A stretch of DNA of 28,060 bases from a virus (lineage: Duplodnaviria; Heunggongvirae; Uroviricota; Caudoviricetes): IMG/VR virus record IMGVR_UViG_2728369593_000002. One strand, 5' to 3'. The translations under genes and the position numbers were made by a program. Within the stretch, counting starts at the first letter, position 1. Every line of letters begins with the position of its first letter. Below, piece after piece: positions 5,015-28,060 of the stretch. The notes beneath the pieces were generated by a model. That model saw only the letters and a list, made by a program, of their open reading frames with translations. It did not search any database and had not been told where the DNA came from.

Positions 5015-5527
5015 ATGACAACTCAAATTTCTGTTGAAACTCTCTCCCCGATCACCCATAACCAGATTCCTGTTATTACCACCGAACTTTTGGCGCAGCT
5101 TTACGGCACTGAGCCGGTGCGCATTCGCCAGAATCATCATGAGAACAAAGTACGCTTCGTTGAAGGGAAACACTTTTTCAAAGTTGTTGGTAATGACCTT
5201 AAAGAATTGCGGGTAGCTTTAAACTACTCACAAAATTTGCGGGTTACTTTAAGTAACTCACAAAATTTGCAACCATCTTTAAGAGGGTTACAAATTTCCC
5301 CGAAAGCCCGCTCCCTCATCCTCTGGACAGAACGCGGAGCAGCCCGTCATGCCAAAATGCTCGAAACCGATCAGGCGTGGGATGTGTTCGAAAAAGCTGG
5401 AAGACTGCTATTTCAGACAAAAAGGATCCGTCAGCGCCAGCTTCATGCCAGAAAAAGTTTACGACACGCGAGTTCTCTGTTATCAGCGAGGCGGTGTCAC
5501 TGTTTCCACAATTCAGTTGCGGGATGA
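5015..5527 (+). CDS. ORF6N/KilA-N-like DNA-binding domain protein (antirepressor-like moron); the C-terminus probably continues in ORF 5349..5630 after a frame break
   Basis: N-terminal region (ITTELLAQLYGTEPVRIRQNHHENKVRFVEGKHFFKV ... LILWTERGAARHAKMLE) resembles the ORF6N domain. The last 35 residues of this frame are Arg-rich and look out of frame. Confidence 0.55.
   Translation: MTTQISVETLSPITHNQIPVITTELLAQLYGTEPVRIRQNHHENKVRFVEGKHFFKVVGNDLKELRVALNYSQNLRVTLSNSQNLQPSLRGLQISPKARSLILWTERGAARHAKMLETDQAWDVFEKAGRLLFQTKRIRQRQLHARKSLRHASSLLSARRCHCFHNSVAG
5205..5294 (+). repeat. three tandem, progressively degenerate copies of a 30-bp unit inside the ORF6N gene
   Basis: aattgcgggtagctttaaactactcacaaa / atttgcgggttactttaagtaactcacaaa / atttgcaaccatctttaagagggttacaaa; encodes LRVALNYSQN-LRVTLSNSQN-LQPSLRGLQI. 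Confidence 0.55.
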
Positions 5528-6462: not shown

Positions 6463-6465
6463 TTA

Positions 6466-7481: not shown

Positions 7482-7647
7482 AGTTATCCCACCAGACAGC
7501 GAAACGATGAACGAGATTTTTGCAGAGATTGAACGTAAATATGCGCATCAGCCGATGACGCCAAAAGTTATCGATGAAATGCAACGCGAAGCGGCGCGCC
7601 TTGTAAGGCGAGTGACAAACACGAAGGTTACGTTTGTTCGGGACTGA
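7462..7647 (+). CDS. small hypothetical protein (about 61 aa) between spanins and terminase
   Basis: Internal Met of listed ORF 7435..7647; no recognised family; overlaps the Rz1 3' end. Confidence 0.3.
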   Translation: MARLNVEVIPPDSETMNEIFAEIERKYAHQPMTPKVIDEMQREAARLVRRVTNTKVTFVRD

Positions 7648-7704
7648 CATTACAGAAGCTCCTTTGATAAGGGGCTTCGATAATGTCACTAAGAGGAATA
7701 ATTC

Positions 7705-11290: not shown

Positions 11291-11915
11291 CAGTATCACG
11301 GAAATTATTGCGGCGCTGGAGCGCTACAGTGAAATCATAACCCCCTGGGCGACAAAGGTCGCGGAAAACTTTACTGCGGATCTAACCCGGCAGAACGAGA
11401 AAGTTTGGCGGCAACACAGCAAGAACATCAGTCGCGAGCTCCGCAATCTTGTGGAAAGCGCTCCTGTGGGCCAGGTGATGCAATCCATCATCGCCGAACA
11501 GGTCAAGTACATCAAATCGCTACCCCTCGAGGCGGCTGACAGGGTGTACGACATCCAGAATCGGGCGACAGAAGCTGTTGTGACCGGCGGGAGAGCAGAA
11601 CATTTTGCTAAAGAAATAGCCGCATCGGGTGATATAGCAAAGTCCAGAGCTGACCTGATTGCCCGTACTGAACTTGGACGTGCAACCGGCGCGCTGGATC
11701 AGGCGCGTGCGCTGTCAATTGGTTCGAATGGTTATATCTGGCGTACAGCCGAAGATGGTGACGTCAGGCATTCTCATCGGGAAATGGAAGGTAAATTTGT
11801 CGAATGGGGCAAACCTCCAACGCTTGATGGCATGACCGGTCACGCTGGCGAGCTCCCGAATTGTCGCTGTTATAAAGAAATCGTTTTTCCCACTTCCCAA
11901 TCTTATCCCGCCTGA
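11142..11915 (+). CDS. MuF-like (SPP1 gp7 family) head morphogenesis protein; start uncertain
   Basis: C-terminal region ARTELGRATG...YIWRTAEDGDVRHSHREMEGKFVEW...NCRC resembles the Phage_Mu_F domain. No canonical start codon lies downstream of the portal stop, so it either overlaps the portal by about 150 nt or is joined to it by another frame break. Confidence 0.6.
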   Translation: MPKTKRRPASANLMTNRRNRQAEIRYRISLRRIARAVGDIVNGRYDGSNDSITEIIAALERYSEIITPWATKVAENFTADLTRQNEKVWRQHSKNISRELRNLVESAPVGQVMQSIIAEQVKYIKSLPLEAADRVYDIQNRATEAVVTGGRAEHFAKEIAASGDIAKSRADLIARTELGRATGALDQARALSIGSNGYIWRTAEDGDVRHSHREMEGKFVEWGKPPTLDGMTGHAGELPNCRCYKEIVFPTSQSYPA

Positions 11916-11929
11916 ATCGCAGGTAACCC

Positions 11930-13150
11930 ATGAAATATTTTTTCAATACCCGGCTGGGAGAAACCCGCTACCAGCTGGCTGACGGCTCGTTGCTGTGCAA
12001 AGACGTGCCGATAGGACGAACAGGTAAGCAGCTCTATGGTGCTGATGACCTGCCAAAACTGAAACCCGATAAGTTCGGTGAAATAGTCGTCACGCGTTCT
12101 CCTGAGCAGGTATTCCATCCGGCCACGCTTGCCTCATTCGAAGGGATGAGCATCACGATTCTGCATCCTGAAGATGAAAACGGGAATGTGCGGCTGGTAA
12201 ATCCCGAGAACTGGAAAGAGCTTGCTGTCGGGCACCTCCAGAATGTCCGGCGCGGGACGGGTGAGCAGTCTGATTTGATGCTGGTTGACCTTATCGTCAA
12301 AGACGAAAGCGCCATTCAGCTTATCGAAGATGGCCTGCGCGAAGTGTCGTGCGGCTATGACGCGGAGTATGAGCAGACCGAGCCAGGTAAAGCCGAGCAG
12401 GTCGATATTACCGGAAACCATGTGGCTCTTGTCCCTAAAGGCAGAGCCGGAAATCGTTGTGCAATTGGAGACAGAGACACAATGGCAAATCAAAAGAAAA
12501 GCTGGTGGACCCGCATGCGCACGGCCATCAAAACGGGTGACGCTGACACCATGAACGAACTGGTGGAGTCGGCTCCCGCATCGGTTACAGGAGATGAGGG
12601 GGATTTGCCGCAGGGCGTTAATCTCAACATCAACCTGTCCCCGCAGCAACCGCTACCGGACAAAGCACCAGAGATGGGCGGAGGTCCAACCGGCGACAGT
12701 GATGATGACCTCAAAACATTACTGAAAGCCCTGCTGGCTAAGCTGGAAGGAAATGCGACGGGCGATAACGACAATAAGCCTGACGATAATCCGACCGGTG
12801 ACGGCGAGGACGATGAAGAGGAAACCACGATTACTGGTGACTCAGCCTGGCGTGCCGAAGTTATCGTTCCGGGTATCGATCTCAGCCGTAAGATGAAACC
12901 GACCGCGTTCAAACGTGAGGTTCTGGCTTCTGCTGACAAAACGCTGGTTCGCCAGATCGTCGGTGATGCGGATATCCGCAAATTGCCGAAACAATCGGTC
13001 GACATGGCGTTTAATGCCGTGTCTGAGATTGCCAAAGGGCGAAACACCCGCGCCACCACCGGCGATGCACAGCGCCCAAACATGGGCATGACCAGTATCG
13101 CTTCCCTGAACAAACAAAACGCTGAATTCTGGGCAAACCGTAAAGGGTAA
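11930..13150 (+). CDS. DUF2213-like scaffold/prohead protease-like protein with acidic low-complexity linker
   Basis: 406 aa between the MuF-like and capsid genes; D/E/G-rich central region. Family and role are inferred from position and recalled similarity. Confidence 0.5.
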   Translation: MKYFFNTRLGETRYQLADGSLLCKDVPIGRTGKQLYGADDLPKLKPDKFGEIVVTRSPEQVFHPATLASFEGMSITILHPEDENGNVRLVNPENWKELAVGHLQNVRRGTGEQSDLMLVDLIVKDESAIQLIEDGLREVSCGYDAEYEQTEPGKAEQVDITGNHVALVPKGRAGNRCAIGDRDTMANQKKSWWTRMRTAIKTGDADTMNELVESAPASVTGDEGDLPQGVNLNINLSPQQPLPDKAPEMGGGPTGDSDDDLKTLLKALLAKLEGNATGDNDNKPDDNPTGDGEDDEEETTITGDSAWRAEVIVPGIDLSRKMKPTAFKREVLASADKTLVRQIVGDADIRKLPKQSVDMAFNAVSEIAKGRNTRATTGDAQRPNMGMTSIASLNKQNAEFWANRKG

Positions 13151-13153
13151 AAA

Positions 13154-13660
13154 ATGAATAATGTATTTCTGTACCGGATGCCTGTTGGCATTGCCGGGGC
13201 TGTCTCTCGCCCGCAGGACTTAACCGTCGAACCGGTGGTCCTTAAATCCGATAACGCCTTCGCTGCCTATGGCCTGGCTGGTAAATACGATGATGACGGT
13301 TTTTTCGTGCCGCTGGCAGATGGTGATACCGCAGACAAGGTGAAGGGGATCTACGTGCGCCCTTATCCGACCACGTCGCAGCCGGACATGGTTCGCCAGG
13401 TGGGAACAGGCAAGAACTTCCCGGGCGACGCCATGAAGCGTGGCTACGTGACCGTTAATCTCGGTTCTGATTTTGATGCCAGCACCATCAAAAAAGGCGA
13501 CCCGGTATACGTTGTCGTCTCCACTGATGAATCCATCAAAGTGCCGCTGGGTGGATTCATGGCCACGTCAGTCAGTGGCAAAAACGTGGTGCTGACCAAC
13601 GCTGAATTCACAGGTGCCGGTGATGCTGACGGCAATGCAGAAATTTCCTGGAAGATTTAA
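13154..13660 (+). CDS. hypothetical head protein (possible decoration or structural protein)
   Basis: 168 aa immediately upstream of the major capsid gene. Confidence 0.45.
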   Translation: MNNVFLYRMPVGIAGAVSRPQDLTVEPVVLKSDNAFAAYGLAGKYDDDGFFVPLADGDTADKVKGIYVRPYPTTSQPDMVRQVGTGKNFPGDAMKRGYVTVNLGSDFDASTIKKGDPVYVVVSTDESIKVPLGGFMATSVSGKNVVLTNAEFTGAGDADGNAEISWKI

Positions 13661-13671
13661 GGAACAGACGA

Positions 13672-14613
13672 ATGATTACTTTTGATCAGGCAACCGTTGA
13701 CAGCTCTGGTGCCTTTCTCATCGGGGAGCTGGAGCGACTCGACCAGACGCTGAACCTGCCACTGGTGGGGTACACCTGGACCCGCGATATCCAACTGCGT
13801 GAAGATGTCTCCATCGCAGATGACATTTCCAGCTGGACGAATACCAGCTTTGCCGCTGCGGGTACTGGTGCAAATCCGAATGGCAAAAACTGGGTAGGCA
13901 AAGACTCAACCGCTATTGCTGGCGTGAACGTGGATATCGGCAAATCCGGTAACCCGCTGAACCTGTGGGGGATGGAACTTGGCTGGACGGTCATAGAATT
14001 GCAGGCTGCTCAGCAGGTCGGCCGCCCGATTGATACGCAGAAGTATGACGGTATGCAACTGAAATGGCAGATGGATAACGATGAACAGGTATATGTTGGC
14101 GATTCTGCATTAAACCTGAAAGGCCTTGTTACCCTGGACGGCGTGCCTGTCAACAACGCTGCCAAAACGTGGGCAACCTCAACACCGGACGAAATCCGCG
14201 CAAGCATTAACCAGGTGCTGTCTGATGCGTGGGCCGCTTCCGGTTACTCTGTGGTTCCGCGTGATTTGCTGATCCCGCCTGAGCAGTTTGCTCTGTTGTC
14301 CAGCATCATCGTTTCATCTGCGGGTAACCAGTCCCTGTTGACGTATCTTCAGACCAACACCATCAGCTATCACCAGAACGGTGTTCCGCTGAATATCCGC
14401 GCGGTTAAATGGCTGAAAGGCCGTGGTGTGGGGAAAAAGGATCGCATGGTTGCGTACACCAACGATAAAAAATACGTCCGCTACCCGCTGGTTCCGCTTC
14501 AGAGCGTGCCGGTGCAGTATCGCGGTCTGTATCAGATCGTCACTTACTACGGCAAGCTGGGTGCAGTCGAGCCAGTGTACAAAGAAACCATTTCGTACGT
14601 TGATGGCATTTAA
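13672..14613 (+). CDS. major capsid protein (DUF2184-like)
   Basis: 313 aa at the capsid position, followed by a GC-rich hairpin. Family assignment is from memory. Confidence 0.65.
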   Translation: MITFDQATVDSSGAFLIGELERLDQTLNLPLVGYTWTRDIQLREDVSIADDISSWTNTSFAAAGTGANPNGKNWVGKDSTAIAGVNVDIGKSGNPLNLWGMELGWTVIELQAAQQVGRPIDTQKYDGMQLKWQMDNDEQVYVGDSALNLKGLVTLDGVPVNNAAKTWATSTPDEIRASINQVLSDAWAASGYSVVPRDLLIPPEQFALLSSIIVSSAGNQSLLTYLQTNTISYHQNGVPLNIRAVKWLKGRGVGKKDRMVAYTNDKKYVRYPLVPLQSVPVQYRGLYQIVTYYGKLGAVEPVYKETISYVDGI

Positions 14614-14620
14614 CAGCCAC

Positions 14621-14642
14621 ATGGCCCCCCTGGCGGGGCCAT
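14621..14642 (+). promoter_or_regulatory. GC-rich RNA hairpin downstream of the capsid gene (no U-tract); possible transcript stabiliser or attenuator
   Basis: ATGGCCCC-CCTGGC-GGGGCCAT perfect 8-bp inverted repeat. Confidence 0.3.
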
Positions 14643-14655
14643 TAAGGATGACCCG

Positions 14656-14874
14656 ATGGCAAAAAATGATGCAGTAATACACGTACATACCCCGTTTGTG
14701 CTCACGCTTCCCGACGGTTCACGGCGCGAGTTTGTTAAAGGCCGTCATGCTGTGGAGGAAGAAGTTGCCACGCACTGGTTCACTCGTGCGCACGCGGAAG
14801 TATCCGTTGGCAAAGCCACAGACGCGCGTAATGAGGTAAAAAAATGCCAAAGAATCAAAGTCTGCCAGCGGTAA
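14656..14874 (+). CDS. hypothetical head-tail joining protein
   Basis: 72-codon ORF; 3' end overlaps the next gene, whose ATG has a GAGG Shine-Dalgarno. Confidence 0.4.
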
Positions 14875-15251
14875 GTGATTTTCGCCGCGACTTCCCGCAG
14901 TTTGCTGACCCTGCCAAATATCCCGAAGCGCAAATCCAGTTTCGTCTGAATCTGGCCGATGAACTGCTGAGTGAAAACGTCACCGGCAAAAAGTTGTTTC
15001 CGTACTTTGCCGGATTGTTCGTTGCGCACTACATGACGCTCTGGGCGGCAGACAGCAGAGCGATGCTGGCTGGTGGTCCGGGCGGTTCAACCAATGGTGT
15101 TCAGTCCTCAAAGTCCGTTGACAAGGTAAGCGTCAGCTATGACACCAGCGCGACGCTGAATCCTGATGCAGGTTTCTGGAATAACACCCGATATGGCGCT
15201 GAATTTTATCAGTTGATCACGATGTTCGGTGCAGGCGGTCGCCAGCTATGA
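14844..15251 (+). CDS. DUF4054-like head-tail connector protein
   Basis: 135 aa, good Shine-Dalgarno, stop overlaps the next start (ATGA). Confidence 0.5.
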
Positions 15252-15802
15252 GTTTCAAAAGCGGTGTAACAACGAGGGTGGATAACGCTAAGGCCATTCT
15301 GGATGCGCTCAGGTCGTTAACCAAAAAAGATGTGCTGGTCGGCATCCCTTCGGAAGACAGCGAGCGGGATGATGTTCCGTTTGGTAATGCGGGCATCGGT
15401 TACCTCAACGAATACGGCTCACCAGAGCAGAACATCCCGCCACGACCTCACCTGGTCCCCGGCGTTAAATCGGCAGAAGAGCAGACGGTGCCGCAGCTCA
15501 AAACCGCGGCGCAGGCTGCTCTTGATGGTAATGCTGCGGGAGCAGAACGCGCACTCAACCGTGCCGGAACGCTGGCCGCTAATGGCGTCAGGCGTTACAT
15601 GACTATTACCGGCTTTACGCCGCTTGCTGACAGCACTGTTGAAGCCCGGGCTCGTCGGGGGCGCAAGGGGGCAACACTGGAACTTGCCCGGCGTGTTGCT
15701 GGCGAATCTCCCGGAACCGATCTGGCGAAACCATTAATTGACACCGGGCAATATCGCAGAGCGATTACCCATGTAGTGAGGGATAAAGATGCCGACTCTT
15801 GA
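15248..15802 (+). CDS. hypothetical virion protein (head completion or neck)
   Basis: 184 aa, translationally coupled to neighbours. Confidence 0.5.
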
Positions 15803-16178
15803 TGTAACAGATGTGCTTTTTGACCCCGATTTTTGCGACTTCAATTTGTGGGTAACACGCCGAGTGCAAACGGTGGATGAGGACGGGATCGGCAGCGACA
15901 GCGAAGTTAAAAAGCAGTTTGCCGGAGTCGTAACTGTTGATCGCTCTCTGGAAAACCGTCGTATGCAGGCCGGGCAGGTAATCAGTGGTGCAATTCTGAT
16001 TGTGACGACTGAGCGACTGACGCAGGGACAGACTGGCCGTGATGCCGATATCGTGACGTATCAGGGCCGTGATTATCGTGTGACTTTCGTCGACCCGTAT
16101 ACAGCGTATGGTGCCGGATTCGTTCAGGCGCATTGTGAGTTGCTGCCGTTTGATGGGGGAATTCCGGTTGAGCAATAA
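15789..16178 (+). CDS. hypothetical virion protein (head-tail adaptor-like)
   Basis: 129 aa, overlaps upstream stop. Confidence 0.5.
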   Translation: MPTLDVTDVLFDPDFCDFNLWVTRRVQTVDEDGIGSDSEVKKQFAGVVTVDRSLENRRMQAGQVISGAILIVTTERLTQGQTGRDADIVTYQGRDYRVTFVDPYTAYGAGFVQAHCELLPFDGGIPVEQ

Positions 16179-16716
16179 CACCAGCACAGAGCGCGGATGG
16201 CTGATACCAACCAGTGGCGATCCGGATTATGACGAAGCGCTCGACAGGCTGTTAAGCCAGTGGATGCGTAACGTTTCCGGTCTGTCTGCCGGGATGGTTC
16301 GTCCGCGCTGGCAGAAAGAGCAACCGCCACTGCTACCGGCTGAAACGAACTGGTGTGCGTTTGGGGTTATCGGATGGTCAGGTGATGACAGTCCGGCATT
16401 CACCAGACAGACCGATGATGGCTCTCAGCTCTGGCGGCATGAAACGATTGAGTGTATGGCTTCGTTTTATGGACCGGCGGGGATGGTATATGCGTCCCGG
16501 TTTCGTGACGGTATATCTGTGCCGCAGAACAATGCAGCACTGAATGCGCTGGGGCTGTCTCTTGGCGATTACACAGGTCTGACTCCCTTCCCTGAACTTA
16601 TTAATCAGCAATGGGTCCGCCGCTACGATATGACGGTGCGCCTGCGCCGGAAGGTTGTGCGCGAGTACGGTATTAAATCGCTGGTGGAAGCACCAGTCAT
16701 CTTTTTCGGAGATTAA
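16153..16716 (+). CDS. hypothetical tail-completion-like protein
   Basis: Internal ATG of listed ORF 16108..16716; precedes the sheath gene. Confidence 0.45.
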   Translation: MGEFRLSNNTSTERGWLIPTSGDPDYDEALDRLLSQWMRNVSGLSAGMVRPRWQKEQPPLLPAETNWCAFGVIGWSGDDSPAFTRQTDDGSQLWRHETIECMASFYGPAGMVYASRFRDGISVPQNNAALNALGLSLGDYTGLTPFPELINQQWVRRYDMTVRLRRKVVREYGIKSLVEAPVIFFGD

Positions 16717-16719
16717 GCT

Positions 16720-17865
16720 ATGGCACAGGGCTTGCCTGTATCAAACGTTGTTAATGTTGATGTGATCATGTCGCCGCGTGCAGCATCAGGGAGAAATTTT
16801 GGTGCATTACTCATTCTCGGCCCGTCCACAATCATTCCGGTAAGTGAGCGCATTCGTCGTTATTCTGCCGCGGAAGATATTGGAAAAGATTTTGGCGTGG
16901 AATCACCAGAATATAAAGCTGCGCAGGTGTTTTTCTCACAATCACCGAAACCTCAGGAGGTTTTTGTTGGTCGTTGGGTGAAAACGAAGGGAGACAGCGA
17001 ACAGGCCACGCCTGAGACGCTGGAGCAGGCTGTGAATGCCATACTCGATTATACTTCATGGTATGGGCTGGGGATTGCAGACGATGAAGATATTCCGGAT
17101 GCAGACTGGCTGAAAGTGGCTGCGGCGATCGAATCCTCTTCTGTAAGCCGTATTCTGGCGATTACGACAAGCGATGATAAATGCCTGCAGACTGCATCCA
17201 GCGATGATTTGGCATCAAAACTGAAAACCGCCGGATATTCACGCAGTTTTATTCAGTATTCATCGGGTAATAAATACGCTGCGTTATCTGCATTTGGCCG
17301 GGCATTCACGGTTAATTTCAATGGCAGTAATACCGCGATTACGCTCAAGTTTAAGCAGGAGCCGGGTGTCGGGTATGAAACACTGACAGTCAGCCAGGCA
17401 TCGGCACTTGATGCAAAAAACTGCAATGTGTTCGTGTACTATCAGAATGATACAGCTATCCTCCAGCAGGGAGTGATGGCTAACGGCGATTTCTTTGATG
17501 AACGCCACGGCCTGGACTGGTTACAGAATTATGTGCAGACCAACCTCTATAACCTGCTTTATACCAGCACCACGAAGGTTCCCCAGACTGAAGCCGGTAT
17601 TACCCGACTGTTATCAAATGTTGAAAAATCACTGGATCAGGCCGTTCAGAATGGACTGATTGCTCCGGGCGTATGGAACGGGGGCGACCTTGGCCAGTTG
17701 TCATCAGGTGACACGCTGCCCAAAGGTTATTACGTATACGCCCAGCCGCTGGATGAACAGGCACAATCAGAACGTGAAGCCCGTAAGGCTCCGGTGATTC
17801 AGGCTGCAATAAAACTTGCAGGCGCGGTTCATTACGCTGACGTACAGATTAACGTTGTTCGCTAA
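16720..17865 (+). CDS. contractile tail sheath protein (DUF3383-like)
   Basis: 381 aa immediately upstream of the tube gene. Family assignment is from memory. Confidence 0.65.
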
Positions 17866-17875
17866 GGGGAAGTGA

Positions 17876-18317
17876 ATGTCTACCTATTCTTTTATGGATG
17901 TCACTGCGACGCTGACCGGGCCGACCGGTTCGATTGACCTCGGGTACGGTTCTGCAAGTTCTGAAGAGGGGATTGGTGGTTGCGATGGGCGGTCCTAAAA
18001 ACACCATGACCATCGGTGCTGATGGTGAAGTGATGCACAGCCTCCATGCAGATAAAAGCGGGACGATTACCGTTAACCTTCTGAAGACATCACCGACAAA
18101 TAAAAAATTGTCGCTGGCGTATAACGCACAGAGCCAGTCTTCTGCCACATGGGGGAATAACGTTATCGTGATCCGCAACAAGGTCAGCGGCGACATCATC
18201 ACGGCACGCAGTGTTGCGTTCCAGAAACAACCGGATAATGCCAACGCTAAAACCGGTAATACGATGCCGTGGGTGTTTGACTGCGGCAAGATTGACCAGT
18301 TTCTCGGGGAGTTTTAA
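17876..18317 (+). pseudogene. tail tube protein (DUF3277-like) with a +1 frame break near 17975-17976; may be real or a sequencing error
   Basis: ATG 17876 with GGGGAAG Shine-Dalgarno gives MSTYSFMDVTATLTGPTGSIDLGYGSASSEEGI, then stops after 7 more codons. The next frame continues VVAMGGPKNTMTIGADGEVMHSLHADKSG to 18317. Deleting one G in GATTGGTGG joins them into about 146 aa. Confidence 0.6.
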
Positions 18318-18320
18318 TAC

Positions 18321-18773
18321 ATGGAATTCGAAATCAAAGGCGTGAAATATCGCGTGGCAAAACTCAGCGTTTTTGACCAGCTGAAAGTGACCCGCAAACT
18401 TCTGCCGGTGCTGGCAGGAATGATGTCAGATTTCGGGAGCATTCGCTCCCGTTTGCCTGCTGACGGCAAAATCGACACCGTGAAATTCGAGCAGTTAAAA
18501 CCGGTGTTTGAAACCATGCTCCCGCGTATCGCTGAGGAACTGTCTTCCCTGACCGAAGATGACACCGATGCGATTATTCACCCCTGTCTTGCGGTGGTAT
18601 CGCGGCGTCATATGGACGGATGGGTGCCGGTATTTACCCGGGGCGAACTGATGTTTGATGATATTGACCTGCTGGTCATGCTTCATCTGGTGGCGCGGGT
18701 GGTCGCCGATTCGCTGGGAAATTTTTTGCCTACGCCCCTTACCAGCACGACGCAGAGCCTGCAACAGGGCTGA
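18321..18773 (+). CDS. tail assembly chaperone (lambda gpG analogue)
   Basis: 150 aa between tube and tape measure genes; slippery heptamers near the 3' end. Confidence 0.65.
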   Translation: MEFEIKGVKYRVAKLSVFDQLKVTRKLLPVLAGMMSDFGSIRSRLPADGKIDTVKFEQLKPVFETMLPRIAEELSSLTEDDTDAIIHPCLAVVSRRHMDGWVPVFTRGELMFDDIDLLVMLHLVARVVADSLGNFLPTPLTSTTQSLQQG

Positions 18774-18961
18774 CGTTTAACAGCCTGCCGGACGGGCTGT
18801 CCTACCTTCTCAATCCGGTTGACGCCGGGTTAATTCCTTATACAGCACTTAAAGATGGCTCTGTCGATTTGTACGACATTGCTCTCTTGAATGACCATCT
18901 GGCGGTAAAAGCGGATAACCAGCGGCGCATTGAGAAATGGAGAGAGGATAATGAACGCTGA
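18321..18961 (+). CDS. tail assembly chaperone -1 frameshift fusion product (gpGT analogue)
   Basis: A AAT TTT / T TTT TTG slippery heptamers (18719-18728) in the zero frame. The -1 frame is open from there to TGA at 18959-18961 with no start codon of its own. Confidence 0.5.
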
Positions 18962-18999
18962 AACTATTAAAGATTTCCTCGGTCTCGCTTGGCTTCAGT

Positions 19000-20958
19000 G
19001 TGGATGATGCAGGAGCGAAAAAGTTCGGTTCTGTCCTCGCCGGTACAACTGCAAATGTCATCAAAATGGGGCTGGCTGTTGAAGGAGCTGCGCTGTCCGT
19101 GGTGGCCTTCACGGCTAAGATCGCCTCTGGTCTGGATAATCTTTACTGGGCGTCACAGCGCACCGGCGCGACAGTCCAGGGAATTCAGTCTATTGGCTAT
19201 GCGGTTTCGCAGGTTGGCGGCAGCGTGGACGCTGCGCGATCTTCTCTGGAAAGCCTCTCCCGGTTTATTCGTAACAATCCCGGTGCAGAAGGCTTTCTGA
19301 ATCGCCTGGGCGTACAGACCCGTGATGCCAGCGGTAACATGCGTGACATGGCCGCTATCTTTACGGGCGTTGGACAGAAACTCAGCAGCATGCCGTATTA
19401 CCGGGCTAACCAGTATGCGCAGATGCTGGGCATTGACGAAAATACCCTGATGGCTATGCGTCGCGGAGTGGGGCAGTTCAGCGCTCAGTATTCAGAAATG
19501 GTGAAAGCGATCGGATTTAATGCCGATCAGGCTGCCTTATCGTCAAACCGGTTTATGACCTCGCTGAAATCGCTCGGTGAAATGGCCGGGATGGCGCGGG
19601 ACAAAATCGGATCGAATCTTGCGGACGGACTGGCGGGGCAGATTGATAACCTGCGCAAAAAGATAATTGAAAATTTTCCCAAAATTGAAGTCACCATCAC
19701 AAAGGTCATAAAGGGGATCCTCTGGCTGGGTGAGATAGTCGGGCGGGTAGCATTTCGGATAGTCGATGGTGTCGGAGATATCATCGAGTGGTGGGGGAAA
19801 CTGGATGCCGAAACGAAAACCCTGATAGAGGTTATCGGCGGTCTGGTTGTCGCCATGCGGATACTTAACTCTACTTTCTGGATGTCACCTATAGGGCTGA
19901 TTACCGGTCTGATCGTGGCTCTCGGTCTCTTGTGGGAAGACTACAAAACATGGAAAGAAGGCGGTAACAGTCTTATCGACTGGGAAAAATGGCAACCGGC
20001 AATAGATAAAGCGAAGGATGCGATCACCTGGCTTCGTGATCACCTTCTGGAACTAAAAGATGGTGTTGGCGGCTGGCAAAATGCACTGGAAATCCTCGGT
20101 ACATTCATCGCGGGTGTCTGGGTATCCAGGGTTCTGGGGGCTTTCGGAAAAATATCAGGTTTACCGGTCCCACCCTGGCTTAAATTGTGGGCGCTTTACG
20201 CGGGCTATATTGTTAGTGACAGAGAAAATATTGCCGATAGCGCAAAATCTTCACTGAGGTATACGAAGCGAATTATCGGCGACACGCTGGCTGCTATTGG
20301 TATAAAAACAGATATCGGACGCAGGGATGTCAGTGAGGTCCGTGAATGGCCTGCGTGGATGGACTGGTTGCACGGGGGACCCGGTAAAGTTATCCGGCAG
20401 GGACAGAGTAACGGTGTAGTGCATGGCTCCAACGTCCAGCCCGACATCCCCGGCGGCGGCACTCTTGCTGATCGCAACAATAACCCCGGGAACATTCGCC
20501 CGGTGAGCGGTAAAGGGTTCCGGTTTTTCGAATCAGCGCTTGAGGGCTGGGAGGCGATGAAAAACCAGCTCATGCGTTACTTTACCGGGAAAACAACCGG
20601 ACGGGCATTACAGACTATTCAGGATATTGTCAGTACCTGGGCCCCGGCAGGTGATAACAACGATCCGAAAAAGTATGCACAGGATGTTGCGAAATGGATG
20701 GGAGTATCACCGAATGCAATATTGAATCTTACAGATCCCCGGACTATGGGAGCATTGATGCAGTCGATGGCGCGCAAAGAAGGTTATTCAAACTGGAACA
20801 GCCCGCTGGCGTATCAGGCCGCCGCTGGCAGCCTTAACCAGCAGACTGTTATAAATGTTCATGGAGTTAACAACCCTCAGGAGGCGGCTAATCTGATTGC
20901 TGACAAGCAGGGGGCTGTAAATGCCAGGGCGGTACAGCAATTGAAAGGGCCTGCGTGA
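19000..20958 (+). CDS. tail tape measure protein; true start may be ATG 18951 with a frame break near 18981
   Basis: 652 aa, helical, with a hydrophobic central segment, after the chaperone pair. The listed GTG at 19000 lacks a Shine-Dalgarno, whereas ATG 18951 has GGAGAGAGG upstream. Confidence 0.8.
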   Translation: MDDAGAKKFGSVLAGTTANVIKMGLAVEGAALSVVAFTAKIASGLDNLYWASQRTGATVQGIQSIGYAVSQVGGSVDAARSSLESLSRFIRNNPGAEGFLNRLGVQTRDASGNMRDMAAIFTGVGQKLSSMPYYRANQYAQMLGIDENTLMAMRRGVGQFSAQYSEMVKAIGFNADQAALSSNRFMTSLKSLGEMAGMARDKIGSNLADGLAGQIDNLRKKIIENFPKIEVTITKVIKGILWLGEIVGRVAFRIVDGVGDIIEWWGKLDAETKTLIEVIGGLVVAMRILNSTFWMSPIGLITGLIVALGLLWEDYKTWKEGGNSLIDWEKWQPAIDKAKDAITWLRDHLLELKDGVGGWQNALEILGTFIAGVWVSRVLGAFGKISGLPVPPWLKLWALYAGYIVSDRENIADSAKSSLRYTKRIIGDTLAAIGIKTDIGRRDVSEVREWPAWMDWLHGGPGKVIRQGQSNGVVHGSNVQPDIPGGGTLADRNNNPGNIRPVSGKGFRFFESALEGWEAMKNQLMRYFTGKTTGRALQTIQDIVSTWAPAGDNNDPKKYAQDVAKWMGVSPNAILNLTDPRTMGALMQSMARKEGYSNWNSPLAYQAAAGSLNQQTVINVHGVNNPQEAANLIADKQGAVNARAVQQLKGPA

Positions 20959-21608
20959 TGGACTTTTTATCTGTTTTACTGCAGCAGCGAACCCGCTCAA
21001 TAGGAATAATTATTCCTGATGTGGTTATTACCGAAAAGCACACTGACGCCCTGGAAATTACGGAACATCCGGTTGAACAGCCCACGAATGCTGGTGCCAG
21101 TGGTGAGGACGCTGGTTACATATCAGAACACGCATTCAGGCGCCCTTCTGAGGTTGTGATGGAAACCGGTTTTTCCGGAGGCGGATCGCTGCTTGATTTT
21201 GCCAGTAACCTGACTGCTACCAGTTTACTGGGGCTGAGCCCGAAAGAACTGTATCAGGAACTGCTTAACCTGCAGCGGAATCGTATTCCTTTCGATGTGA
21301 CAACCGGCAAGCGTATTTACAACAATATGTTGATAAAAACGCTGGAGGTCACGACCGATAAGAGTAGTGAAAATGTGCTTCTGGCGACACTTACCCTCAG
21401 GGAAGTAATTATTACCTCCACGCAGTCAGTCAGGGTTGCCCCGAAAAACAATATGACCGAGGGAGTCGGAACGTCTGCTGTGCAGAATACAGGCACCAAA
21501 ACAACGGTGCCGCCGAATAATTCCATTCTGAAATCGCTGCCACAGATGGCGCAAGAAGGTATCTCCACTGTTGATGGGTATTTGAGCAATTTATTTCTGG
21601 GAAGGTGA
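20955..21608 (+). CDS. hypothetical tail/baseplate protein
   Basis: 217 aa, start overlaps the tape measure stop. Confidence 0.45.
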   Translation: MMDFLSVLLQQRTRSIGIIIPDVVITEKHTDALEITEHPVEQPTNAGASGEDAGYISEHAFRRPSEVVMETGFSGGGSLLDFASNLTATSLLGLSPKELYQELLNLQRNRIPFDVTTGKRIYNNMLIKTLEVTTDKSSENVLLATLTLREVIITSTQSVRVAPKNNMTEGVGTSAVQNTGTKTTVPPNNSILKSLPQMAQEGISTVDGYLSNLFLGR

Positions 21609-21611
21609 TTC

Positions 21612-21914
21612 ATGAAAGCCGTAGAAATCCCACTGGTTGCTGACAATCAGACTTTTGCCACCACAATTAACGGTTCGGTTTATCACCTGTCTGTCATCTG
21701 GCGAGGTGAGTACTGGGTTCTGGATCTTGCTGACAGCAATGGCTCCGCCATTATATCAGGTATACCGATGATTACGGGGGCTGACTTGCTGGCACAGTAT
21801 CGATATATGGATCTGGGTTTTTCTCTGGTGGTGCTCTGCGATGTGGCAGGGCAGGAGAATCCGACGCAATTCGATCTTGGAACGCTCTCACACCTCTATG
21901 TTTTCACGGAGTAA
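21612..21914 (+). CDS. hypothetical baseplate-associated protein
   Basis: 100 aa, tightly packed between tail genes. Confidence 0.45.
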   Translation: MKAVEIPLVADNQTFATTINGSVYHLSVIWRGEYWVLDLADSNGSAIISGIPMITGADLLAQYRYMDLGFSLVVLCDVAGQENPTQFDLGTLSHLYVFTE

Positions 21915-21916
21915 CA

Positions 21917-22951
21917 ATGTCGAAAAACTGGATGCGTCACTTTGAATTATTGCTTGTTGATGATAAGGGCGACGGGATAAAAATTTCTGAGCTTAAAGTC
22001 ACTTTCAATATTCAGAAAATGCCTGCGACCATATTTAATGGATTCGTTGGGAATTTTAAGGTTTATAACCTGTCCCCTACCACTCAGAACCGGATTATGC
22101 AGAAGGAGTTTTCGCGTATACAGGTTATTGCCGGATACAAGGGGCAACCGGATGCAGCAGGTAATTATCCTGATGAAAACGTTGGTATGATATTCAATGG
22201 AGATATCCGTTTTACTGTCACTGGTAAAGATAATGCCACAGACAGTTGGATCATGTTGCAGTGTATTGACAGCTGGGAAGGCCACCTGAACGCAAGTGTG
22301 AAAACCACAGTGGCAGCTGGCTGGAAGTACAGCGATCTTTTCAGTCTGGGTATGAAATCATTCGAACCATATGGCATCGAATCCGGCGCAGTTCCTGACA
22401 TGCCTGAAACGGTATTTCCCCGGGGTCGCGTTGTTTATCAAAACACATCAAGGTTGATGAATCATATCGCAGGGCAGTGTAAGGCTAACTGGTGGTATGA
22501 AAATAATCTGGTAAATATTGTTCCTGAAGATAAATATATTGGTGTTGCTACGGTGTTGAATGCTAACACCGGGCTTATCGGTATGCCACAGCAGACGATG
22601 GGAGCTGGCGTAAATGTCAGATGTCTGATTAATCCAAATATTAAGCTCGGTGGGCTTATTCGTCTGGATCAGGCATCTGTATACCGTGCCTCTTTGAGTA
22701 ATGACCAGGTAGCGAAATCGCCAGCACGACTGGATGAGTCTGAAAGCGACGGTAATCTCTACGTTAACGGTCTGCCAGGCATGTCACAGCCTGCCAGCAT
22801 TAATACTGACGGTGATTACATTGTGGGCAGCATTGATTATACTGGCGACACCCGAGGGCAGGCGTGGTATATGGACCTGCTTTGCCTGGCTAAAGGTGGC
22901 AAAGAACTATTGGCAAAAGGCACTTTGGACAAAGTCGGAGATGTAGAGTGA
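21917..22951 (+). CDS. baseplate hub-like protein
   Basis: 344 aa downstream of the tape measure and upstream of the spike; role inferred from position and size. Confidence 0.45.
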   Translation: MSKNWMRHFELLLVDDKGDGIKISELKVTFNIQKMPATIFNGFVGNFKVYNLSPTTQNRIMQKEFSRIQVIAGYKGQPDAAGNYPDENVGMIFNGDIRFTVTGKDNATDSWIMLQCIDSWEGHLNASVKTTVAAGWKYSDLFSLGMKSFEPYGIESGAVPDMPETVFPRGRVVYQNTSRLMNHIAGQCKANWWYENNLVNIVPEDKYIGVATVLNANTGLIGMPQQTMGAGVNVRCLINPNIKLGGLIRLDQASVYRASLSNDQVAKSPARLDESESDGNLYVNGLPGMSQPASINTDGDYIVGSIDYTGDTRGQAWYMDLLCLAKGGKELLAKGTLDKVGDVE

Positions 22952-22973
22952 AAAAAGTATTTTTTGGTTATTC

Positions 22974-23282
22974 TTGGCCCTGCCGTTAACAGTTTCGGCG
23001 GCAACGCAGTGCGGACCATTCCGCTTTGATGCTGGTAATGATGGCCTCATGCACATCAATGGTCAAAAGCCAGAAACACAAAAAATGACCTTTTTGAAAC
23101 AAAAAGACGATTTCGATAATGTCATGATGCAATGGATGTTACCTGATCCTAATACTGGACGTTGGTTAGGTATGGACTACATCAAACGAAACAAAAAAGC
23201 GATCCTCAACGTTGAAGTTATCCGCAAAAATATGGACGACCCTCGGGAGTTCTGGACGTATGATTGCCGGAAGGTGAAGTGA
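22974..23282 (+). CDS. small secreted/periplasmic protein (moron); likely true start GTG 22948, which requires a one-base frame correction in a T6 run
   Basis: Listed ORF begins at TTG with a truncated signal peptide. GTG 22948 (GGAG Shine-Dalgarno upstream) encodes VKKVFF, and with T7 instead of T6 (22960-22965) reads MKKVFFWLFLALPLTVSAA|TQCG, a complete signal peptide. Confidence 0.4.
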   Translation: MALPLTVSAATQCGPFRFDAGNDGLMHINGQKPETQKMTFLKQKDDFDNVMMQWMLPDPNTGRWLGMDYIKRNKKAILNVEVIRKNMDDPREFWTYDCRKVK

Positions 23283-23312
23283 TCTTTACCAACACAACTG
23301 TATTAATCATTG

Positions 23313-23352
23313 CTCTCTCATCTTGAATATGCGCTAATCTGTACATGTACAG
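23313..23352 (+). promoter_or_regulatory. candidate promoter (-35 TTGAAT 23313-23318; -10 TAATCT 23335-23340) with overlapping 14-bp perfect palindrome CTGTACATGTACAG (23339-23352) as putative operator
   Basis: Sigma-70-like hexamers with 16-bp spacer; the palindrome spans the -10/+1 region immediately upstream of the antitoxin Shine-Dalgarno. Confidence 0.45.
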
Positions 23353-23362
23353 AGAGGGTGCT

Positions 23363-23776
23363 ATGAAAACCATTACTTATACACAAATGCGTTCGGATTT
23401 ATCTGCCACGCTGGAATTGTTACGCTCAGGTGAGAGTGTAACGGTAACGCAACGGGGGAAGCCTGATACTGTTATCAGTGCAAAAACCGTTGATAAGGTG
23501 GTGTCTGGAAAAGAAATTAAGCCACAAAACAAAACGATAGATGCGCATCTTGCACAGTTAATTTCATCTAATTTATCCCCACAGGTAACGGAGGGAGTCA
23601 TGAAGTTTACTAAGCAATTAGATGTCCTTCTGCAGTCTGATGAGGCGCGCCAGGCAATGATGAAGGCTGCCAATGCTGCACTTGCCCTGCAGGGCGTATC
23701 AGAGTCATTTATTAAAGCTTTGCAACATACTCAGACTAAGCATGCGGAAATTATAAAAAAACTGGAAGATAAATAA
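23363..23776 (+). CDS. Phd/YefM-family antitoxin with long C-terminal extension (137 aa)
   Basis: N-terminus MKTITYTQMRSDLSATLELLRSGESVTVTQRGKPDTVI matches the Phd/YefM fold signature. GAGGG Shine-Dalgarno upstream; stop overlaps the Doc start (TAATG). Confidence 0.7.
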   Translation: MKTITYTQMRSDLSATLELLRSGESVTVTQRGKPDTVISAKTVDKVVSGKEIKPQNKTIDAHLAQLISSNLSPQVTEGVMKFTKQLDVLLQSDEARQAMMKAANAALALQGVSESFIKALQHTQTKHAEIIKKLEDK

Positions 23777-24183
23777 TGGCTGAGATTACGTTTCTTTCGG
23801 TTGATGAGGTTATTGCGATTCAGAAAAGTACGCTGCCGAACAGCGGGCAGCCTGATATAGGTAAGCTCGAAGGTGCCCTGAACAGGGTGCATAATCTGCA
23901 CATATATGAAGGCTGTGAGGATTTATTTAAATTTGCCGCTATGTATATGGTAGCAATAGCGAAGTCTCACGCTTTTAACGATGCCAACAAGCGAACAGCT
24001 TTCCAGGCCACCAGCATTTTCTTGCTAATGAATGGCTATGAACTTAACACCTCCATGGAGTTGGTGAAGTTGACTATCTTTGCTGCTACTGGAGAAGCTG
24101 ATTGTGATAATACTGCACTGGCACTAAAACTCTTGTCAGATTATAAGAATGAGCTGCTGGCAGACACGATTACTGGATACTGA
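23776..24183 (+). CDS. doc: Doc (death-on-curing) Fic-family toxin
   Basis: 135 aa with the Doc active-site motif HAFNDANKRTA; translationally coupled to the upstream Phd-like gene. Confidence 0.85.
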   Translation: MAEITFLSVDEVIAIQKSTLPNSGQPDIGKLEGALNRVHNLHIYEGCEDLFKFAAMYMVAIAKSHAFNDANKRTAFQATSIFLLMNGYELNTSMELVKLTIFAATGEADCDNTALALKLLSDYKNELLADTITGY

Positions 24184-24215
24184 TAGCGTATCAACGGTAA
24201 ACGTAAAATGTGTAT

Positions 24216-24239
24216 AACCCGCCGTCGAGCGGGTTTTTT
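24216..24239 (+). terminator. intrinsic terminator downstream of doc
   Basis: AACCCGC-CGTCGA-GCGGGTT hairpin followed by a T6 run. Confidence 0.6.
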
Positions 24240-24254
24240 ATGTCTGGAGAAAAT

Positions 24255-25007
24255 ATGCCAGTTTCACTTTCCTCTCAACTCGGCAGTAAAGAACAGGCCG
24301 ATGTAAGACTTGCTGGTTCTGTCATGTCGGTGCTGCGTGTTTCTATGCCCGGTATCGTCCAGTCATTTGATCAGGACACGGTAACGGTAGTTGTTCAACC
24401 AGCGATTAAAGGTTATGAGCCGGACTCAAATGGAATCAACCAGTCGACGACATTACCCCTGCTGGTGGATGTGCCAGTGGTATTTCCGCGCGGCGGAGGC
24501 TGTACGTTGACTTTTCCGGTAAAAGCCGGTGATGAATGTCTGGTGATTTTTTCCGATCGTTGTATTGATTTCTGGTGGCAGAACGGCGGGATACAGGAGC
24601 CGGTCGATGACAGAATGCATGATTTATCGGATGCATTTTGTATTGTCGGTCCCCAGTCGCAGGCGAGGAAGATTAGCGGTATTAATACCAGTGCCACACA
24701 GTTGCGTAGTGACGACGGCAGCACCTATTTTGAGCTTAATCCTGATACCAGGAAAATTAAAATTGTCGCTCCGGGTGGTCTTGATGTGGTTGCCCCTCTG
24801 GCTGATTTTTCTGAGAAAGTAACCATTCATGGCCTGTTAACCTGGATGGGGGGCATGGTGGGGTCTGTGGTTTCTGGTGTGGCTTCAAAAATCACTGGTG
24901 CTGTTGAGTTCTTGGGGAGCGTGAAGGCTAACGGCAAGCCAATCGATGATACGCACACTCATGGTGGTGTTCAGCGCGGTGGAAGCAGTACCGACGGGGT
25001 AAACTGA
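24255..25007 (+). CDS. baseplate spike/assembly protein (gpV-like)
   Basis: ATG 24255 with GGAG Shine-Dalgarno; the listed 24210 start lies inside the terminator. Gly-rich C-terminus with a THTHGG motif. Confidence 0.6.
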   Translation: MPVSLSSQLGSKEQADVRLAGSVMSVLRVSMPGIVQSFDQDTVTVVVQPAIKGYEPDSNGINQSTTLPLLVDVPVVFPRGGGCTLTFPVKAGDECLVIFSDRCIDFWWQNGGIQEPVDDRMHDLSDAFCIVGPQSQARKISGINTSATQLRSDDGSTYFELNPDTRKIKIVAPGGLDVVAPLADFSEKVTIHGLLTWMGGMVGSVVSGVASKITGAVEFLGSVKANGKPIDDTHTHGGVQRGGSSTDGVN

Positions 25008-25360
25008 TGCGATACAGACGTGAAGACGCCGATGGCGATTACACCTTTGGCAGCGGTGATGACACCTGGCTGATTAACTCACCGGAGGCCGTGGCGCAGG
25101 CGGTAAAAACGCGATTCGAATTGTGGTATGGGCAATGGTTTCTCGACACCACCGAGGGGACTCCGTGGATCCAGTCCGTACTCGGTAAGCAGAAGCCTGA
25201 AACCTACAACCTGGCGATCCGTAAGCGCATCCTCGAAACGCGGGGCGTTAAATCAATCCTCTCTTTCAATACGACGGTGGATACCACGACCCGACGTGTC
25301 ATGTTTTCCGCTGAAATCGACACTCTTTATGGAATAACGACTGTTACATCGGAGGCGTAA
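25007..25360 (+). CDS. baseplate wedge protein (gpW/gp25-like)
   Basis: 117 aa between spike and J-like genes; start overlaps upstream stop. Confidence 0.5.
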   Translation: MRYRREDADGDYTFGSGDDTWLINSPEAVAQAVKTRFELWYGQWFLDTTEGTPWIQSVLGKQKPETYNLAIRKRILETRGVKSILSFNTTVDTTTRRVMFSAEIDTLYGITTVTSEA

Positions 25361-26559
25361 TGGCTCTGAACCTTGATTCTCTCGGTTTATCTGCAAAGGT
25401 AACCGCGGAGGGGATCAGTGCGCCTGATTATCAGACGATACTCAGCACCCTGATTAGCTATTTTCAGCAGATTTATGGCAGTGATGCCTACCTCGAACCG
25501 GACAGCAAAGACGGCCAGATGGTGGCTCTGATGGCGCTGGCGATTCATGATGCCAATAATATGGCGATAACTGTCTACAACTGTTTTTCACCGGCAACCG
25601 GCTATGGGGCTGCACTGACCAGTAACGTGAAAATAAATGGTATTTCACGTAAAGGCGCGACGAACTCTACGGTTGATTTGCTTCTTGCAGGAACTGCCGG
25701 AACAACCATCATTAATGGCAGCGTGAAAGACAGTAATAATGTGATATGGCGTTTGCCTGCTTCAGTAGTGGTCGGCGTGGATGGTACAGTGATGGCGACC
25801 GCAACATGTTCCGTCAGTGGTGCAGTGGCGGCGCTGGCTGGAACTATCACTGAAATTAATACGCCAACCCGTGGCTGGGTTTCGGTAACCAATCCTGCTG
25901 CAGCTACTGTGGGCACTCCGGCAGAAACTGACGCGGAGTTACGTATCCGCCAGTCGCAGAGTGTTGCGTTGCCATCAATAACCCCATTTGAAGCACTGGA
26001 TGGTGCTGTTTCTAATGTTACCGGTGTAACCCGCCACAAACTCTATGAAAACGATACTGGTTCGGAGGACGGTAACGGGTTACCGCCACACTCTGTTGCT
26101 GTAATTGTGGATGGCGGTGATGTAACGGATATTGCTCAGGCTATCAGAGGGAATAAAGGCCAGGGGACAGCCACTCACGGTACAACATCCGTTACGGTTC
26201 CGGATAAATACGGCAATCCCCATGTAATCAAATTCTCGCGTTCCAGTGATGTGCCTGTTTATGCCCGGATTAAATTAAAAGTTTTTACGGGTTATACCTC
26301 ACAGATAGGGCAGCAGATCCAGCAGGCTATTTCCGACTATATCAATAGTCTGATGATTGGTGATTCGGTCCTTTTAAGTCGCATTTACTCACCGGCGAAT
26401 CTTGGCGTGGTGAGTGGCGGGAATGCACGCTATTACGATATTCAGGAACTGACGATTGGGAAATCCCAGGGGACTTTGTCGTCATCAAACATTGATATCA
26501 GATATAACGAATCTGCGTCCTGTACCCCGGAAAATATCGTTATAACGGTGGAGTCATGA
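25360..26559 (+). CDS. baseplate J-like protein
   Basis: 399 aa in conserved gene order W-J-I upstream of the tail fibre. Confidence 0.65.
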   Translation: MALNLDSLGLSAKVTAEGISAPDYQTILSTLISYFQQIYGSDAYLEPDSKDGQMVALMALAIHDANNMAITVYNCFSPATGYGAALTSNVKINGISRKGATNSTVDLLLAGTAGTTIINGSVKDSNNVIWRLPASVVVGVDGTVMATATCSVSGAVAALAGTITEINTPTRGWVSVTNPAAATVGTPAETDAELRIRQSQSVALPSITPFEALDGAVSNVTGVTRHKLYENDTGSEDGNGLPPHSVAVIVDGGDVTDIAQAIRGNKGQGTATHGTTSVTVPDKYGNPHVIKFSRSSDVPVYARIKLKVFTGYTSQIGQQIQQAISDYINSLMIGDSVLLSRIYSPANLGVVSGGNARYYDIQELTIGKSQGTLSSSNIDIRYNESASCTPENIVITVES

Positions 26560-27236
26560 GCAAATACACCGAACTAATCACAAACTACCACGCCTCCAAA
26601 CCTAAATTTCTTTCACATGTTGATCTGATGACCCGGCCGCTTATTGATGTTGCGGCTGCCACCAGAGGGCTGATTACTGCATTTGATATCGACTCTGCGG
26701 TTGGTGTGCAACTTGACATTCTGGGATTGTGGATCGGACGTAGCCGTGTTGTCAGCCAGCCTATTTCAGGTGTCTATTTCAGCTGGGATACCGACGGGAT
26801 TGGATACGATCAGGGGGTATGGCAGGGACCATACGATCCTGATTCAGGATACATGTATCTCAGCGATGAAACTTATCGTGTCATTCTTAAAGCGAAGACT
26901 GCGATTAATAACTGGGACGGACGGAATGATTCGCTTCCGGCAATTCTTGACGCGGCAACAGCAGGATCCGGGCTGCGAATGCAGATTGTCGATAACCAGG
27001 ACATGACGATATCGGTCTGGGTCTTTCCTGATACTGATATTTCAGATGTATCGCGTGAGTTAATTGCTGCAATTAAACAGGGATATCTCACAGTAAAAGC
27101 CGCCGGGGTGTGGGCGGGTGGTATTGAAACACCTTCGGTGGAAACCCCATCGGAAGGTTCAAAATTTTTTGGTTTTGATATGGATAACGAATTTATCAGT
27201 GGTTTTGATGTAGGGGCATGGGGAGTATTACTCTGA
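26556..27236 (+). CDS. baseplate/tail protein I-like (DUF2612-like)
   Basis: 226 aa; stop overlaps the tail fibre start (TGATG). Confidence 0.55.
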   Translation: MSKYTELITNYHASKPKFLSHVDLMTRPLIDVAAATRGLITAFDIDSAVGVQLDILGLWIGRSRVVSQPISGVYFSWDTDGIGYDQGVWQGPYDPDSGYMYLSDETYRVILKAKTAINNWDGRNDSLPAILDAATAGSGLRMQIVDNQDMTISVWVFPDTDISDVSRELIAAIKQGYLTVKAAGVWAGGIETPSVETPSEGSKFFGFDMDNEFISGFDVGAWGVLL

Positions 27237-28060
27237 TGGCAAAAAATGACTTTAAAGCATTCGCAACGGGTAAAAATGCCAATGTTATGTCGCAGGAGGA
27301 ATGGGAAGCGTTGCCTGCGCTTTTATCCGGATTTACAGCAGGGAAAGCCTCCAGTGCGCAAGTCAATAAGGTTATTCGGCAGGCCAGCTTTATTGCTGCA
27401 GCTCTGGCCCAGTTTGTAAGTGATAAAACGCAACGGGATGTGCTTGATAATGGTGATCTGCCCGGTTTTGTTGAATTGCTGGGATCGGGGTTTGCTGTTG
27501 AATACCTGAGCCGCAAGAATCCGTTTGGTGATATCAAATCGGATGGCACGGTGAAAACGGCTCTCGAAAAACCTTGGTTTGGGAGAAGGAGCTCCAGCTA
27601 TTGGCGTTCCGTTCTTCTGGCCGTCCGCTGCAATGCCAGATACCGTAATCGATAGCTGGTCCGGTATGGTGTTTTTGAAGTTCAACGGCGCGAAATTCTC
27701 TGCCACTGATTACCCTGTGCTGGCGAAAGTGTTTCCGGCGCTGGCATTACCTGACGCACGCGGTGATTTCATTCGTATCTGGGATGATGGGCGCGGGATT
27801 GATGTCGGACGTACCCTACTTTCAGGGCAATCACACACAATTATGGATCATGCACACAATATGGAATTGTGGACGGGGGACGGGCTTGCCGCAGGAAGTG
27901 CACGGGAAGGAGTAAACCCAGGAATACTGGCTACATATGGTGACGGGGGAATAGTTAAAACGGACGAACCCGGTCTTAAGGTGCCTTCCTCACTACGAGC
28001 TATTAGCTCTCGTAGTGTTAAACGTTATGGTGAAATTAGTGGAAATGTAGGTACAGAAAC
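27236..28060 (+). pseudogene. tail fibre protein, 3' partial (runs off window), with a +1 frame break at an A5 run (27567-27571); may be real or a sequencing error
   Basis: N-terminal frame ends in Arg-rich out-of-frame sequence at 27655. The adjacent frame reads NLGLGEGAPAIGVPFFWPS...LPDARGDFIRIWDDGRGIDVGR...HTIMDHAHN (tail-collar-like) to the window end. A4 instead of A5 joins them. Confidence 0.6.

Follow-up and report, generated by a model that had tools for sequence, protein, structure and literature searches.

The window, i.e. the whole stretch of DNA analysed here, has a length of 28,060 nucleotides and is the complete draft contig AKYH01000082.1 of the assembly GCA_001605745.1. The host element is a myovirus prophage of the SEN34 / vB_EcoM-611R5 type. 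The contig ends inside a tail fibre gene of the stfP type, the reading frame of which is broken in the deposited sequence. The following features are found in this region:

27236..28060, plus strand: stfP-type tail fibre gene, 289 aa when intact, split by one extra A
27236..27565, plus strand: constant N-terminal part of the fibre, 110 codons, to which at least five tip families are joined in relatives
27561..27587, plus strand: pixL crossover site of the Pin DNA invertase, 27 bp instead of 26, encoding ...LENLGLGE
27567..27571, plus strand: A5 run with one A too many, in the outer (constant-side) half-site of pixL, which breaks the frame
27572..27655, plus strand: out-of-frame read-through of 28 codons, Arg-rich and ended by a TAG stop, due to the extra A
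27574..27575, plus strand: central TT (AA on the other strand), the strand-exchange dinucleotide (PMC3241671 Table 3)
27588..28060, plus strand: variable fibre tip inside the invertible segment, with a T4 gp37-like collar region and a His-x-His motif (HAH)

The open reading frame that starts with the ATG at position 27236 ends at 27655 and encodes 139 amino acids: The first 110 residues, ending in ...DGTVKTALE, match tail fibre proteins, and they are followed by 28 out-of-frame residues (KPWFGRRSSSYWRSVLLAVRCNARYRNR), seven of which are arginines. Behind the AAAAA run at 27567-27571, the +1 frame reads NLGLGEGAPAIGVPFFWPS...LPDARGDFIRIWDDGRG up to the end of the window. The original prediction, made from the letters of the window, had described this arrangement and proposed that A4 instead of A5 would join the two frames. 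Its coordinates are all correct, and so is the proposed repair: Deletion of one A yields an open frame of 274 amino acids within the window, and this product is 100% identical to residues 1-274 of the 289-aa fibre of the sister prophage L384. Moreover, three relatives from E. coli (96.8-98.1% identity) have A4 and a single uninterrupted ORF of 870 nt for a protein of 289 amino acids. The contig end cuts the fibre gene 46 nt short of its stop codon, with 15 codons missing. The original prediction had suggested looking beyond the window for the receptor-binding tip and a chaperone. A long tip is not present there, since the gene ends 15 codons past the contig end; the C-terminal motif NIAFNFLVR lies, in relatives, just beyond this end. 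The chaperone, by contrast to the long tip, does exist: in relatives, the fibre gene is directly followed by a gene for tail fibre assembly.

The part of the fibre behind the frame break had been called a typical tail-collar segment. The Pfam Collar domain (PF07484) reaches 17.7 bits over residues 146-179 only and stays below its gathering threshold of 24. Residues 120-212 can be aligned with the collar region of the tip of the T4 fibre protein gp37 (PDB 2XGF, E = 3.5e-5 for the whole match), and this alignment takes in the His-x-His motif; the C-terminal sequence NIAFNFLVR corresponds to NIAFNYIVR in gp37. "Collar-like" is therefore a reasonable description, whereas "typical" is too strong.

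The original prediction had placed a boundary between an N-terminal anchor and a collar-like domain at the A run. A boundary is indeed found here, but what had been missed is its nature, i.e. the pixL crossover site of a Pin-invertible segment. In the window, this site reads CTCTCG-AAAAA-CC, TT and GGTTTGGGAGAA, and the A run stands in the context CTCTCGAAAACC-TT-GGTTTGGGAGAA. The published sites of the e14 element are TTCTCCCAAACC AA GGTTTTCGAGAG for pixL and TTCTCCCAAACC AA CGTTTATGAAAA for pixR, and the central dinucleotide is the point of strand exchange in the sites of the Din family (PMC3241671 Table 3). The two sites in the relatives of our prophage are the reverse complements of the published pixL and pixR with 26 of 26 identical bases each. 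The site in the window is the reverse complement of pixL with one A added, and it matches at 26 of 26 bases once this A is removed.

In all five relatives inspected for this feature, the pix site and its partner are the strongest inverted repeat, and the partner site, which is identical to pixR, lies 1.8-1.9 kb downstream of pixL and thus beyond the end of our contig. It directly precedes a gene for a pinE-type serine invertase; this gene, in or near which a Fis-dependent recombinational enhancer would be expected, is outside of the window. In the sister prophages L381-L383, the 184-aa product encoded directly after the right-hand site contains the domains PF00239 (Resolvase) and PF02796 (HTH_7), and pinE is annotated in L001 and L218. 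Between the two sites, the relatives have the fibre tip, two opposed chaperone genes of the Caudo_TAP family, and an inverted gp53-like alternative tip. Both tips are in frame with the constant part (LENLGLGE-GAPAIG... or LENLGLGE-AAKRDV...), and both orientations exist in nature: The segment of L218 is flipped as compared to L003, and in L381, which is 99.94% identical to the window, the tip that occupies positions 27569-28060 of the window is found inverted at the far end of the segment. In both L218 and L381, recombination has occurred exactly at the central TT. With the pix site in the fibre coding sequence, the inverted partner site, the adjacent serine invertase, the alternative tips that are in frame, and the observation of both orientations, the locus is an already known Pin-invertible P segment of the e14 type within the Din family. 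The constant N-terminal part of the fibre remains on the baseplate-side gene whichever way the segment points, and in the relatives it is continued after ...LENLGLGE by tips of at least five families.

These observations lead to the following mode of action. The crossover site pixL (26 bp), at which a Pin-type serine invertase acts, spans codons 108-116 (LENLGLGE). This enzyme flips a segment of about 1.8 kb with the fibre tip, the two opposed assembly genes and the alternative gp53-like tip, and each inversion joins the constant N-terminal part of 110 amino acids in frame to one or the other tip. The locus is the host-range switch known from the e14 P segment, and it operates like the G segment of Mu and the C segment of P1.

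Several side observations concern the pix site and the segment. The similarity to the fibres of lambdoid siphoviruses (mEp213, mEp043) starts at about position 27559, and the similarity to the Shigella phages SfI, SfII, and SfIV stops at about 27593; since both limits fall at the pix site, it is a module boundary across unrelated phages. The contig stops (28060) within the invertible segment. "Partial" tail proteins with lengths of 124-149 amino acids are encoded on hundreds of draft contigs, one of the sequences on 416 of them, which points to frequent interruption of short-read assemblies at this invertible or repeated region.

The position of the extra base within a recombination site, 3 bp from the crossover dinucleotide, might point to a contingency tract that is subject to phase variation, or to a by-product of faulty strand exchange by Pin at pixL. 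We regard both possibilities as very unlikely. The run comprises only four or five bases, and its length is constant at A4 in 206 relatives, which led us to reject a phase-variable homopolymer. Serine invertases cut at the central dinucleotide (PMC3241671 Table 3) rather than in the A tract, and the eight other insertions on the contig (see below) are not located at recombination sites.

How rare is the A5 allele? In an enlarged set of more distantly related loci, A4 is present at the fibre site in 206 of 206 cases, and A5 in none. A pattern search that covered both alleles recovered 2 genome, 120 viral, and 92 metagenome loci, and every one of them has A4. No A5 copy was found in an A5-specific scan of IMG/VR, and none is present among the 60 best full-length matches listed from 5,426 complete E. 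coli genomes. An exact-sequence look-up in about 15 billion proteins found the truncated product of 139 amino acids on a single contig. The comparison with fibre homologues that the original prediction had asked for gave the following result: In all 199 loci with a complete gene, the ORF reads through the pix site, and among these 199 homologues there is no stop equivalent to 27655 and no separately initiated downstream gene.

The break is located in a homopolymer, and the frames are open on both sides of it. One might thus think of programmed +1 ribosomal frameshifting or of transcriptional slippage on the A run, by which a full-length fibre would be produced from the A5 template. This explanation is extremely improbable: The A5 allele was found nowhere else (0 of the 206 loci, no copy in IMG/VR, and the identical sister prophages have A4), so that a conserved recoding site does not exist, and all homologues are single ORFs. 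In addition, eight other, unrelated +1 insertions are present on the same contig. Finally, five A residues fall far short of the tracts for which transcriptional slippage is known, as these are much longer.

The decisive control is provided by near-identical sister prophages. The same prophage is present in at least six other assemblies with only 0-3 substitutions over 11-19 kb. The exact gpI-like and gpJ-like proteins of the window are found on nine contigs each, the sister loci carry the same Phd/Doc cassette, and the sister prophages adjoin pphA-yebW-yebV-rsmF wherever the locus reaches the end of the prophage. All of them have A4 in the fibre gene. Comparison with these and other relatives revealed nine single-base (+1) insertions in the window, each of which copies the adjacent base, as well as one garbled T-run:

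5391-5395, plus strand: A4 to A5, ORF6N-domain gene, split
5419-5423, plus strand: A4 to A5, ORF6N-domain gene, split
5452-5456, plus strand: A4 to A5, ORF6N-domain gene, split
5458-5460, plus strand: T2 to T3, ORF6N-domain gene, split
7798-7802, plus strand: G4 to G5, splits the gene for a putative small terminase of 249 aa; in 0 of 25 relatives
14838..14844, plus strand: A6 to A7, alters the last codons of a STY1053-family gene; absent in 51 of 51
17975..17976, plus strand: G to GG, divides the tail tube gene into ORFs of 40 aa and 113 aa; in 0 of 111 relatives
18981..18982, plus strand: G to GG, interrupts the tape measure gene about 10 codons from its start; in 0 of 118 relatives
27567..27571, plus strand: A4 to A5, tail fibre gene; in 0 of 206 relatives
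22960..22969, plus strand: garbled T-run (T6GGTT here, T7GTTT in the sister copies), at the beginning of a gene for 111 aa

Private insertions were counted as sums per run, as the placement of gaps by BLAST varies with the strand. Wide sampling was possible at four of the sites (0/25, 0/111, 0/118, and 0/206). Four of the nine insertions fall within 70 bp (5391..5460), and the garbled T-run corresponds to one substitution and one 1-nt deletion relative to the sister prophages. An intergenic C run downstream of the major capsid gene (14625-14630) had been considered as a further error, and this was rejected: The sister prophages also have C6, and the length varies naturally among the relatives (C4, C5, or C6).

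The contig NKAF01000011.1 (GCA_002461645.1) has no substitutions as compared to positions 2575-21293 of the window and a single mismatch over 16555-27650, located within the garbled T-run, and it lacks all nine +1 insertions. The assemblies GCA_023546125.1 and GCA_047897415.1 are also free of the insertions at each site that they cover, and the same holds for the sites covered by the independent Logan read-set assemblies ERR302879, SRR32363447, and ERR144905. Accordingly, the sister copies encode a tube protein of 146, a tape measure protein of 668, and a fibre of 289 amino acids. The remaining proteins of the window are 93-100% identical to those of relatives, and neither nonsense mutations nor larger deletions were found inside its structural genes.

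Because nine private +1 insertions are absent from essentially identical copies of the prophage, a sequence error is the best reading: We infer that the frame break is very probably due to a base-calling or assembly error in AKYH01000082.1, i.e. an over-called A in a short homopolymer, rather than to a mutation of the phage. The real gene is an intact stfP-type tail fibre gene encoding 289 amino acids. Such a pattern of insertions would typically arise when bases are over-called in an early draft assembly. As a counterpoint, the two G to GG insertions are outside of pre-existing homopolymers, and this is less typical of homopolymer miscalls. A literature search for the assembly accession retrieved no paper that mentions it.

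With several broken genes at hand, general decay of the prophage was considered, and this was ruled out as the sister prophages show no accompanying substitutions. The more specific alternative is that A5 is a genuine and very recent frameshift in a prophage that is undergoing inactivation, which would truncate the fibre in both orientations and might impair inversion. The extra base is, after all, present in the deposited record, and E. coli often harbours defective prophages in which tail genes are broken. The strain has its own IS insertion (see below) and is therefore an independent isolate, so that recent mutations are formally possible. Moreover, the sister prophage L384 (GCA_023546125.1) also has its own lesion: Its Dit-like baseplate gene lacks 2 nt at the position that corresponds to 21316 of the window, and the gene is uncalled there; single indels that may or may not be real are thus also present in other drafts of this prophage. 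Even so, we consider a genuine frameshift unlikely. In mutation accumulation experiments with E. coli, substitutions are about tenfold more frequent than indels, and mismatch-repair mutators add many transitions. In the window, nine +1 insertions and one 1-nt deletion are opposed by practically no substitutions relative to the identical copies (0-3 over 11-19 kb), whereas a genuine prophage pseudogene would be expected to show them in proportion. Nine insertions, four of them within 70 bp, with almost no substitutions do not make a natural mutation spectrum. The intact state of the structural genes with respect to nonsense mutations and larger deletions also argues against ongoing inactivation, and the indels, if real, would break the putative small terminase, the tube, the tape measure, and the fibre together. 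The loss of fibre integrity that was implied by the original prediction has thus not withstood the comparison with the near-identical prophages.

It is nevertheless worth considering what a real A5 would mean. Because exchange takes place at the central dinucleotide and the A run is located on the constant side, the frameshift would persist in both orientations. Both fusions headed by StfP would be lost, and the ORF headed by StfE, which runs into the segment from the side of the invertase, would stay as it is. With 13 bp in one half-site in place of 12, the positioning of the invertase would probably be disturbed; a search for published data on how invertase activity responds to one additional base pair in a half-site returned only the general architecture of the 26-bp site. 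StfE2 and PinQ have been reported to act in anti-phage defence, i.e. in a fixed, host-serving kind of module (PMC12529663). It is improbable, and even more so than a genuine frameshift as such, that a real and very recent A5 has abolished both StfP-headed fusions, possibly locked the P-segment switch, and been a step toward such a fixed module that serves the host.

The closest known system is the e14 P segment of E. coli K-12 (stfP-tfaP-tfaE-stfE-pinE), with which the relatives share not only the two sites (26 of 26 bases each) but also the order of fibre head, tip, two opposed assembly genes, inverted gp53-like tip, and serine invertase; some of the relatives are even annotated as StfP. The lengths agree as well, with 1.8-1.9 kb in the relatives and 1797 bp in e14, where the inversion between stfP and stfE by PinE, PinQ, and PinR has been studied experimentally (PMC12529663). 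There are three differences: (i) e14 is a decayed remnant, whereas the segment described here is part of a complete myovirus prophage with the full set of head, tail, and baseplate genes. (ii) The tip variant of our prophage (GAPAIGVPFFWPS..., gp37-like) is one of several families that are attached at the site. (iii) The pixL site in the record of the window has one extra base. The G segment of Mu (Gin/gix) and the C segment of P1 (Cin/cix) use the same mechanism: An invertase of the Din family swaps C-terminal fibre parts and their chaperones onto a constant N-terminus, and the crossover site of 26 bp (PMC3241671 Table 3) is likewise part of the coding sequence of the fibre. In our prophage, however, the site has the pix sequence instead of that of gix or cix, and with 289 amino acids the fibre is much shorter. 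The tip of T4 gp37 (2XGF) shares the collar region, the His-x-His motif, and the C-terminal motif with the fibre of the window, but this similarity is weak (E = 3.5e-5 for the whole match), the tip is much shorter here, and the chaperone is of the lambda-Tfa/gpK type (PF02413).

The frame break is therefore best classed as an artefact in a well-known system rather than as a real feature. Taken at face value, the contig suggests a prophage with a broken small terminase, tube, tape measure, and fibre. The identical copies elsewhere are those of an intact phage, which is probably functional, and related phages of the vB_EcoM-611R5 group have been deposited as complete phage genomes. As the identical copies show an intact phage, any conclusion on host range or on the viability of the prophage that is drawn from this record would be wrong. 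What is gained is a corrected annotation: The gene is a fusion of a constant and a variable fibre part, and the apparent domain boundary is pixL, in a system that is already well characterised.

Two further observations concern accessory genes of the prophage. An antitoxin of the Phd type (PF02604) and a Doc/Fic toxin (PF02661) are encoded at 23345-24183; they form a moron within the baseplate module, with a hypothetical gene on one side and the gene for the spike on the other. The pair is kept in all sister prophages, and it is missing from L218, which has a DUF4282 gene in its place, and from L219. The second one is the IS element of about 1.1 kb at positions 1480-2574 (approximately), the transposase ORF of which (1429-2517, minus strand) encodes 362 amino acids with HTH and rve domains. 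At its ends are imperfect inverted repeats (TGTATGGGTCCACC… / TGTGTAAGTTCACA…), and the target sequence GGAGA is apparently duplicated. The element is missing from the otherwise identical prophages L387 and L388 and is therefore a real strain-specific difference. The insertion is located about 10 nt upstream of a hok-like gene (2589-2744), and it may disturb the translational control of hok/mok.
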